NCBI GenBank assembly: GCA_051294375.1 | Contig: CM119263.1 | Span: forward strand, 25,214,688 to 25,278,687 | Reading direction: 5' to 3' | Source of the DNA: Paraspadella gotoi | Lineage: Eukaryota; Animalia; Chaetognatha | Length of the DNA: 64,000 nt | Shown here: positions 32,382 to 35,300 of the stretch, one piece after another | Layout: every line of letters starts with the position of its first letter | How positions within the stretch are numbered: the first letter of the stretch is position 1 | Position numbers and translations under genes: made by a program | The notes under the pieces: generated by a model | What the model was told of the DNA's origin: nothing | Seen by the model: only the letters and a program-made list of their open reading frames with translations | The model's database searches: none

Positions 32382-35300
32382 CTTGAAACGAAAAGAGAAA
32401 CACTTTAATTAATTTAAGCAAATGAATATTTTTATTTGATTTTTTTATTTGATTTTTTTATTTCTTTATTAAAAAATATTAGATATTTCAAAGTAATTTA
32501 TTTCTAAAATTCAATTTCTACTGAAGAAAACTAAACGTTTGTATATACTAACTAGCGTTAGTGTTTTTTGATAACCGAAATATAAGTTCATAATAAAAAT
32601 TTATTTTATCAGATTCAACCAGTCACTTTCTTAATTACCAAACTGTTTTGAGCAGTCAACTAATTAGTCAGCGACTCACCTAGCGTGCTGTGAGGCGTAG
32701 GGGTGGCACTGACTGATGTAGGGGGCGGAAGAGTCGCCGGGGGAACAGCGACGCCGGGAGGTGTGCGGCGGCCAGGAGAGGGCGCCACGTGGTTAGGTGG
32801 GGGGACGGGGGGCAGGGCAGAAGCGGTGGGGGTAGGGATCGGCGATGGGTGCGGGGAAGGAATGGGTGGCGTGGGGTGAGGTGCCGAAGACGGAACGCTA
32901 CTGGGAGCTGGGGGTTCCACTGTTGTCGAATGGGGAATGATGGGAGGTGGGGGAAGCGGCGCGCCGGGATAGTTGAACCCGCTACCGTTCATTCCTTCTG
33001 GATAGCCGCCTGGGTGGAAGGATAAAGGGGAGAGGGCGAGAGATGGAGAGAAGAAAAGAAAAAGGAGAGAAAGAAGGATGAAAAAATATAGATGAAGACA
33101 ACCATTTTTTTAAAGAAATTAAGGAGACGTGTGAAAAAAAGAGGACAAGATAGAGGAAAGAAAAAGTGAGGGAGAATTTGAAAAAGATAGGCGTGGGATT
33201 AGAGAATAGAGTTTGGGAACGGGAAAAGAGAATGGGTCAATCATTTGCGCCACGACGAATCTGCTAAACTAAAATGCGAAATGATAAAATCAAAGAATCT
33301 CTAAGCAAAAATTACAAAGCAATGTTTTTTTTGTTGGACAATCACCAATCACTTAGGACTAGCTACAATTAAACTAGAAACTCTGGCTGACTTACATTTT
33401 CGAGTGCGGGATAATGGTTAAACGGAAAAAAAATATTAACACATTGTGCAAGATAAGAATAGAGACAGGTCGTTTTCCGAGTCCCCTGGATTGGTCGATT
33501 TTGGGTCCAGATTGCCCGTAAGATTCTTTGACTTTTTTTTTTAAACCTAAGTTTAAATTTTTGTTTTAATCTAAGAGACGACAATAAACGTGCGTGCAAA
33601 ATCGTTTTTAGTAAGGTGTGACACACAAACATCGAAAACTTGGGCATTTAGGTCCCAAAATTCTTTGTAAAAGGAATTTCCGCGCTTCGATCAGTCATAA
33701 TTTTAAAAATAATTTTTAATTCTAATATTTTTAAACGAATTTGATCTGGCGCGAAAAGACCTCTTCCCGACATTTGGATCCAGGGAACTTACTTGGAAAC
33801 CGTCCCTCTCCAATTCAGTGGCCGGGCGCCGCCGTAGACGGTAGCAGCGACGCAGCTGCCGCGGCAGCCGCGGCCGAGCTGGGCACGGCGTCGTGTCCCA
33901 GCGGCACGCCCTGGTGCTGCAGCATGTTCAGGTAGTTCTTCATGTACAGCTTGGCCATCTCTGACATTTGCTCGGGATTGCCGCCGTCCGGCGGAATCAT
34001 GGGCGGAATGGTGACGCCAGAGGGAAGCGAGGGTGGATAGGAAGACGGTGGGGTGGTGGAAGCCGTGGCTGGAGGAGAGGCCACGCCCACGGGTGTCGGG
34101 CCCCGAGAAACTGGCGTCGGCCCTCGCGAGACCGGAGTTGGGCCTCTGGATACGGGCGTCGGGCCACGCGAAGCCTCCCTGGATCCTCCGCCGCCTCCGG
34201 TGGAGGTCGGCGGAAGAGCGGGGACGCCATTTGAGGGCGTGGAGGCCCATGGGGACCCGGCCGAGCCACGCGAGGGCGCGCGGGGCGCAGCGGCGGGGGC
34301 GTCTTTAGAAGCGGCCGAGGAACCGCCGCCGCTCAAGCTAGGGCTCTGCTGCAAAAGGTCGCGAATGCCGCCACCGGCTCCGCCGCCGCCACCGCTTCCG
34401 CCGTTGAGGTTTGGCGAAGGGACTGTCGGGGGCGATTGTTTGCCGGGCGCCTCGTCTTTCGGCTCCTGACTCGTCGGCGACTGCTTCATTTCCGGCACCG
34501 GCGCCTCCGTCTTCGAGCTCGGGTGAGACGCGGCCGGGAAGGGCGGCGGCGCCGCCCCGCCCTCCGGACTCATCTTCCTGACTACGCCATTGTACTCTGA
34601 CTTGAGCGGAGGGAAATCTTCGCTCGGCGGGTAGAGCGGATGCGAGTGTCCGCCGTTCAACATGCCGGACTCGGACTTACGGTAGTTTTTCAGCGCCGCC
34701 GATGGGGAGGACGAGTTGGTGGGACGGGACGAGATGGACGCCGCGGCGTTGGCGGCGCTGGCGGCCGCCACCGCCGCCGCTGCTGCCGCAACGCTGATCG
34801 GGGGTTGGGCGTGACCCGCGGCTGCCGCGGCGTAGGCGGCGGCCGCGGCCGCCGACGCGGCGGATGCGGCGTTTTGAAGATATTCTTTTTTTTTTGAAGG
34901 AGAGGAAAGGATTAGGGAAAAGGGAAATAAAATTTAATAATCATATTTCAAACTATCATTGAAGAAACTAAAATAAATCTACCTTTGTTTACGCAATTTC
35001 TGAGCGAATCTGGAATTCTTCCGACGATAGCGCGCCTTATCTCTCCGGCCGCCATTTCCCGTAATTCTGCGGGAGACAAAAGGACATCAATATTCAATTT
35101 ATTCATCAATAATTTCAAATTAGCTAATTGATAAAAAAAATTTAAAAACTATTTTTCACTGACCCGTGCAACTCTGGTCCGAATACCACGAACAGTGTGG
35201 CGTGCAAAGGATGTTGGGCGCATCCTTCAAGGGTCCCGAGTTCGGGTTGTAGGGTTCATTCTCGTGGACATCGAGCGCCGCGGCGCGGATGCGTCCGTCC

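Follow-up and report, generated by a model that had tools for sequence, protein, structure and literature searches.

The CtBP gene described here raises the question of which C-terminal tail it encodes, given that the exon leading into the tail carries two splice donors. The window analysed, a 64,000-nucleotide stretch of the Paraspadella gotoi genome, holds this gene as 15 exons on the minus strand, from 60145 to approximately 31249; all positions are those of the window, and all features of the gene lie on that strand. An initial annotation had proposed that skipping an internal donor in exon 13 gives CtBP a second, unfamiliar tail. We favour, with a probability of roughly 0.68, a reading in which the distal of the two donors is used in the mRNA assembled from available RNA data and the internal donor probably continues to serve the ancestral tail, at reduced level or in other stages. 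From this we infer a two-way tail switch in Paraspadella gotoi. The RNA evidence is one usable run from one study (X1), available as contigs only and judged to be RNA because it contains 10 GT-AG joints. Contigs from X2 and from X3, the latter representing another organism with spliced CtBP contigs, serve for comparison.

Exons 1-4 join as a single frame, which places a THAP domain in frame with the CtBP core. Exon 1 (60066..60145, with the ATG at 60145) opens the domain and shares 25 of 27 residues with PDB entry 2JM3, the THAP domain of C. elegans CtBP (PMC2203978). Exon 3 (47365..47532) closes it, with 28 of 36 residues identical to 2JM3, and the middle is probably supplied by exon 2 (59626..59704), judging by its GT-AG bounds and preserved frame. 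Matches of the THAP pieces to 2JM3 have E-values of ~1e-14; Pfam returned zero matches for the two single-exon pieces tried. Exon 4 (46903..47080) encodes an Ala-rich linker, and a loose end of X1 at 37269 maps to 46903. The dehydrogenase-like core follows in exons 5-12 (34983..37269), all of whose introns are joined GT-AG in X1, and runs from RPLVALL to NCVNK with an NAD-binding GxGxxG and the R/E/H triad. The Ala-rich 5’ part of exon 13 common to both splice forms (204 nt, 34681..34884) is present in X1, X2 and X3 contigs, and all 17 listed differences between X3 and this stretch fall at third codon positions. The exon 13 acceptor (34885-34900) has an unusual ten-A run directly before the G of its AG, yet is used in X1 and X2.

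The fusion of an N-terminal THAP domain to CtBP recalls C. elegans CTBP-1a (bioRxiv 10.1101/2020.06.09.143248), and at the same positions the THAP domain is identical to that of C. elegans at 53/63 residues, versus 46-47/63 for three deuterostome THAP-CtBPs. Hemichordate and echinoderm records (P0030, P0033, P0117) likewise include CtBP with a fused THAP domain, so THAP alone is no nematode marker. Moreover, unlike CTBP-1a as far as it is described in the available text, the core here is slow-evolving, keeps the R/E/H triad and is followed by a retained canonical tail. Core identity is 96-97% to a group of related proteins represented by P0006, ~90% to arthropods and 74% to Trichuris suis; most cores from arthropods, priapulids, molluscs and echinoderms fall within 82-92%. 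In a core tree, the gene groups with P0006-type relatives only (93/93 support); a clade with Trichuris (p-AU 0.19) and one with arthropods (0.08) were both tested, and neither is rejected.

Several features elsewhere in the window deserve mention. Positions 857-12317 and 12353-23840 form a tandem duplicate of 94.4% identity with 467 gap openings, which is probably an uncollapsed haplotype or a product of low-accuracy assembly. The first copy carries a single-exon dual-specificity phosphatase ORF on the plus strand (6750-8237, Pfam DSPc); in the second copy, near 18300-19800, the phosphatase ORF is frameshifted. Similar sequence recurs at 40553-41014 and 44187-44489, and a GC-rich block with several ORFs occupies 41570-43999 inside intron 4. 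Repeats or a mobile element may account for these intron 4 recurrences and the GC-rich block.

Exon 13 starts at 34884 and is 204 nt long when cut at the internal donor, or 1092 nt when cut at the distal one. The internal donor (ACC|GTAAGT, 34675..34683, cut 34681/34680) is of phase 1 and matches the acceptor at 33009, in agreement with the in-phase splice of the initial annotation; its splice product is colinear with nine related proteins. When it is skipped, 866 nt stay open up to the TGA at 33817-33815, again as proposed, and full-length models give the predicted lengths of 724 aa for the internal donor and 863 aa for read-through to the TGA. The distal donor (CAA|GTAAGT, 33787..33795, cut 33793/33792) lies 888 nt downstream of the internal one and shares its phase. 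The canonical tail is therefore in frame behind the stop, a point absent from the initial annotation. Against the U1-pairing consensus, the distal donor is the best of the 11 scored, with 8 of 11 positions matching, compared with 6 of 11 for the internal donor and 5-7 for the other nine. A GTAAGT arises anywhere in the long exon in 76 of 2000 dinucleotide shuffles. We looked for a hairpin over either donor and found none of note (z +1.1 and +1.5; folding was equalled by 176 and 192 of 200 shuffles).

The X1 contigs show which donor was used in the assembled mRNA. Their joints comprise nine of the ten introns that the short-splice model places within the stretch compared, together with 33793>33009. 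X1 record 3 (2486 nt, depth 111) is spliced upstream and covers 34884-33792 unbroken, with 0 differences and the TGA included, which demonstrates that the open reading frame continues past a GT donor in mature mRNA. Record 1 (depth 98.5) contains exons 14-15 with UTR, and the contig joining the two has a depth of 56.4; contig depth is a poor measure of level. The 34681>33009 junction is not listed, at 85% or at 80% likeness, in the X1, X2 or X3 contigs, which show presence rather than absence, since contigs drop rare forms. In X2 the extension is matched only through repeats and gives no evidence either way. The long-exon mRNA is thus the only form assembled in X1, a single sample, and because splicing there occurs at the distal donor, exons 14-15 are 3’ UTR in that mRNA. 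For the initial annotation, this means that the extension over 33815-34680 is indeed expressed, in spliced contigs, and that one of the two junctions it had named is seen while the other is not listed. The extension is a real coding tail, but its supposed secondary status is reversed.

Two further observations concern the same contigs. Record 3 is 31 nt longer than the stretch from exon 3 to the end of long exon 13 (2455 nt), so that by length it appears to start approximately 30 nt before exon 3 (47532), which suggests that it also carries the THAP end. This start also suggests a branch near 47532, either an alternative 5’ end or a retained intron, comparable to the THAP-bearing and THAP-less isoforms of C. 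elegans. The intron 33792-33010, which has a further GTAAGT inside at 33395, is retained in a minor X1 contig of depth 9.9.

The 288-residue extension and its stop (33815..34680) are real coding sequence, as shown by the RNA contigs, by 64% identity in a relative and by repeats that differ only synonymously. A homolog search against 1.84 billion representatives gave two matches, of which P0125 spans the whole exon (E 1.7e-89). The other, P0126, aligns only through a repeat and was dropped. P0125 and its cluster mate P0127, which comes from another source, continue past this position as well (NYR-KSE) and share the closing GH. Between the extension and P0125, 157 of 244 aligned residues are identical, with many indels, and the alignment scores 664 compared to a maximum of 136 in 300 shuffles. 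Absence of conservation in relatives, which the initial annotation had named as grounds for abandoning its proposal, is therefore not what we find. Over the helix region, a 265-nt contig of X3 agrees at 55 of 65 nt. As X3 and P0125 could represent a single species, we count at least one other species with the extension. In six pairwise comparisons, the four tandem SRGPTPV repeats (34088..34171; three copies in P0125) show 33 codon differences that are synonymous and none that are nonsynonymous. Amino-acid conservation together with this purely synonymous divergence shows selection on the extension protein. When the extension is shuffled by dinucleotides, its frame stays free of stops in 17 of 2000 cases, and the other two frames of the real sequence contain 8 and 3 stops.

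Besides the repeat, the islands kept in P0125 are an IRDLLQQ motif (34346..34366), identical there and modelled as a short helix with low confidence; a terminal helix (33917..33973; the sole segment with pLDDT >70), nearly identical there; and a hydrophobic-K-x-E site, LKSE (34595..34606), a predicted consensus-type SUMO site that aligns with MKAE in P0125. Every motif named in the initial annotation is present, the four K-x-E motifs included. As SUMO sites, LKSE fits and PKDE does so loosely, while RKSE and SKTE do not fit; the residues RKS are dictated by the donor sequence itself when it is read through. The R-x-x-T-P pattern of the repeat resembles DYRK/HIPK-type sites. A fold model from a 3-sequence alignment (mean pLDDT 43.5) predicts disorder throughout except for a helix at 303-323, with values of up to 76 per block. 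Pfam assigned 0 families to the exon, the extension or P0125, and the ESM Atlas gave a best score of 0.77 and no lead. No longer protein carrying the extension was found among the 7985 scored, which is weak evidence, and a metagenome scan with the exon alignment gave 0 of 392 stretches. In a scan with P0131, 79 of 256 loci were kept, and markers of close relatives were in frame in 0 of the 65 with the core end found.

The arthropod CtBP tail, as set out in the available portion of PMC9907507, consists of NCVNKEY plus an aromatic residue, a central block reading YPEGINGGYY, AHSTT and PEPSEVH. All of these motifs but the first are represented in exons 14-15. Exon 14 (32680..33009, present in X1 record 1) contains the central block and PHSTT of the canonical bilaterian tail, and exon 15 (31249..32381) contains its end (KPES..H), a canonical-frame TGA ending at 32263, and the 3’ UTR. 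The joint 32680>32381 is seen in X1, whose contig reaches 31249. At the position following NCVNKEY, where the arthropod consensus has an aromatic, the residue here is L, as in Priapulus P0008. The central block scores 27.4 bits (0 of 1000 shuffles as good), and the two exons score 16.2 bits against a tail profile, compared with a maximum of -6.6 in 200 shuffles; this profile was built from 87 tails selected by an HSTT-like motif, to the exclusion of close relatives. PHSTT and KPESTEPMH align with the Strigamia and P0131 tails, the terminal motif being degenerate. The 148 open codons of exons 14-15 carry little weight by length, since 209 of 2000 shuffles are stop-free, and their GC content is 65% amid introns and UTR of 22-36%. 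The same canonical motifs were sought in the extension and not found (profile -29.2; the window closest to the central block reaches 3.1 bits, a value matched by 63 of 1000 shuffles). Nor does the comparison support a duplication of exon 14 as the source of the extension.

All nine members of the P0006 cluster have LKGYR-G-x-PE-x-MNG as contiguous residues, the exact product of the internal junction. The group represents a different lineage, and an origin of its members in spliced mRNA is indicated by uninterrupted frames of 451-467 aa in contigs of 1.8-3.8 kb. Judging from these protein sequences, the internal junction is very likely the ancestral one. P0006 and P0128-P0135 have a fully canonical tail ending SEVH or SDVH. 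An insertion of ~14-16 residues behind the core sets some of them apart from others and may reflect a further choice in splicing.

In one alternative, replacement is already finished, with the internal donor silent and exons 14-15 pure 3’ UTR that has yet to decay. The long-exon form is indeed the only one assembled in X1, the canonical part is longer and more Pro-rich here than in the P0006 group, and wholesale tail swaps are described for nematodes, mites and flatworms (PMC9907507, in part). We nonetheless regard this as unlikely, because the extension is old enough to have diverged to 64% identity with many indels, and over that time the canonical motifs and frame have stayed intact across two exons that remain GC-rich, unlike the true UTR at 30% GC. 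The intact tail could also be explained without the unlisted junction if it were made mainly by stop-codon readthrough. In the X1 mRNA, a single TGA stands between the extension and another 156 open codons, with 157 codons lying before the next stop; the 22 nt from the stop to the distal donor (33793..33814, in X1 record 3) are in frame with exon 14, and readthrough would append seven linker codons and then the tail. UGA is moreover described as the leakiest stop (PMC8417969, in part). A leaky TGA between the new and the ancestral tail, in what would be the lineage's main CtBP mRNA, would yield an 863-aa form or a 1020-aa form bearing both tails, and would make this a case of tail replacement via a splice-plus-readthrough intermediate. 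The arrangement resembles that of transcription regulators such as Drosophila Vvl/Dfr, where a disordered, motif-bearing frame stays open beyond one stop of the mRNA (PMC8417969). It differs, as far as that account goes, in that readthrough here is a candidate only, the stop context is other than UGA-C and splicing offers a path to the same sequence. We consider readthrough as the main source of the canonical tail improbable, and the leaky-TGA intermediate doubtful to the same degree: a frame match is expected by chance one time in three, the context is UGA-A rather than the leaky UGA-C, a hairpin after the stop is unremarkable (z -0.13; 86 of 200 shuffles fold as well), Rfam gave two matches, both far below the gathering score, and neither a SECIS nor a readthrough element, and the relatives’ proteins match a position occupied by a perfect donor. 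In the non-subscription literature, searched by title and start of abstract, we found no report of CtBP stop-codon readthrough.

Two explanations would deprive the extension itself of meaning. In mammals, a stop upstream of exon junctions triggers mRNA decay, and the stop considered here lies 22 and 352 nt upstream of such junctions and is followed by at least 1485 nt of 3’ UTR, so that the long-exon mRNA might be an unproductive, decay-targeted species from which the extension is barely translated. That this mRNA is the form assembled in X1, and that its amino acids are conserved and its repeats have diverged purely synonymously, make such an account very unlikely. The assembly also has N runs and, elsewhere in the window, a tandem duplicate of 94% identity, features that might point to an assembly artefact, and GC-rich DNA can contain open frames by chance. 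The RNA contigs agree with the exon throughout (0 differences), an independent homolog exists and the repeats diverge purely synonymously, by which either of these origins can be taken as refuted.

We therefore return to the reading in which both donors serve the gene. Formerly intron 13, the extension would have become coding by read-through of the ancestral donor, after which a better U1-matching donor 888 nt downstream would have taken over, and the canonical exons would be kept by selection on the minor 724-aa isoform. The new tail is predicted to be a disordered regulatory region that offers short binding motifs (one helix and IRDLLQQ), a site of SUMO type and phosphosites of the proline-directed kind. 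Its effect would fall on the strength of repression or the choice of partners, not on catalysis, and the two tails would be expected to differ in modification sites and partners. Phosphorylation and sumoylation of the human CtBP1 tail regulate CtBP1, according to the part of PMC9907507 available, and in the accessible text of PMC10245716 the fly CtBP tail weakens repression at one promoter in vivo, while the long and short fly forms differ in strength in a promoter-tethering assay.

The initial annotation had cited alternative tails in flies, and here the precedent holds but is closer than stated. A Drosophila short form ending SNQEK arises by read-through of the donor that leads to the canonical tail (PMC9907507), the same means by which the alternative C-terminus is generated here. 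In Drosophila, as that source describes it, read-through stops after a few residues, where here it continues for 288 conserved ones; a second used donor, unlike in the SNQEK form, retains the canonical exons within the mRNA, where they stay in frame. The mechanism is thus already known from Drosophila, and the expressed, conserved 288-residue tail beside an ancestral one is a variant of it.

Long derived tails are also described for nematodes, flatworms, tardigrades and Mesostigmata mites, as abrupt, wholesale replacements, and the significance of very long CtBP tails is called obscure; the ten nematodes surveyed all belong to Rhabditida or Trichinellida and have long forms only (PMC9907507, in part). 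The extension resembles these tails in being lineage-specific and of low complexity, with some helix and a predicted SUMO site, a comparison made by description, since Trichuris and Varroa were scored against the canonical profile only. It differs from the replaced tails in that source in that one locus holds both a derived and an intact ancestral tail. Searches of the non-subscription literature found neither another locus with a long derived and an ancestral CtBP tail nor a report on CtBP in Enoplea nematodes.

The gene is likely a snapshot of CtBP tail replacement in evolution. It shows a concrete route by which such a change can proceed: the donor before the central block is read through, intron becomes coding sequence, and the old tail is left downstream. 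With two tails in one gene, their effects become comparable on an identical core, for example in a promoter-tethering assay.
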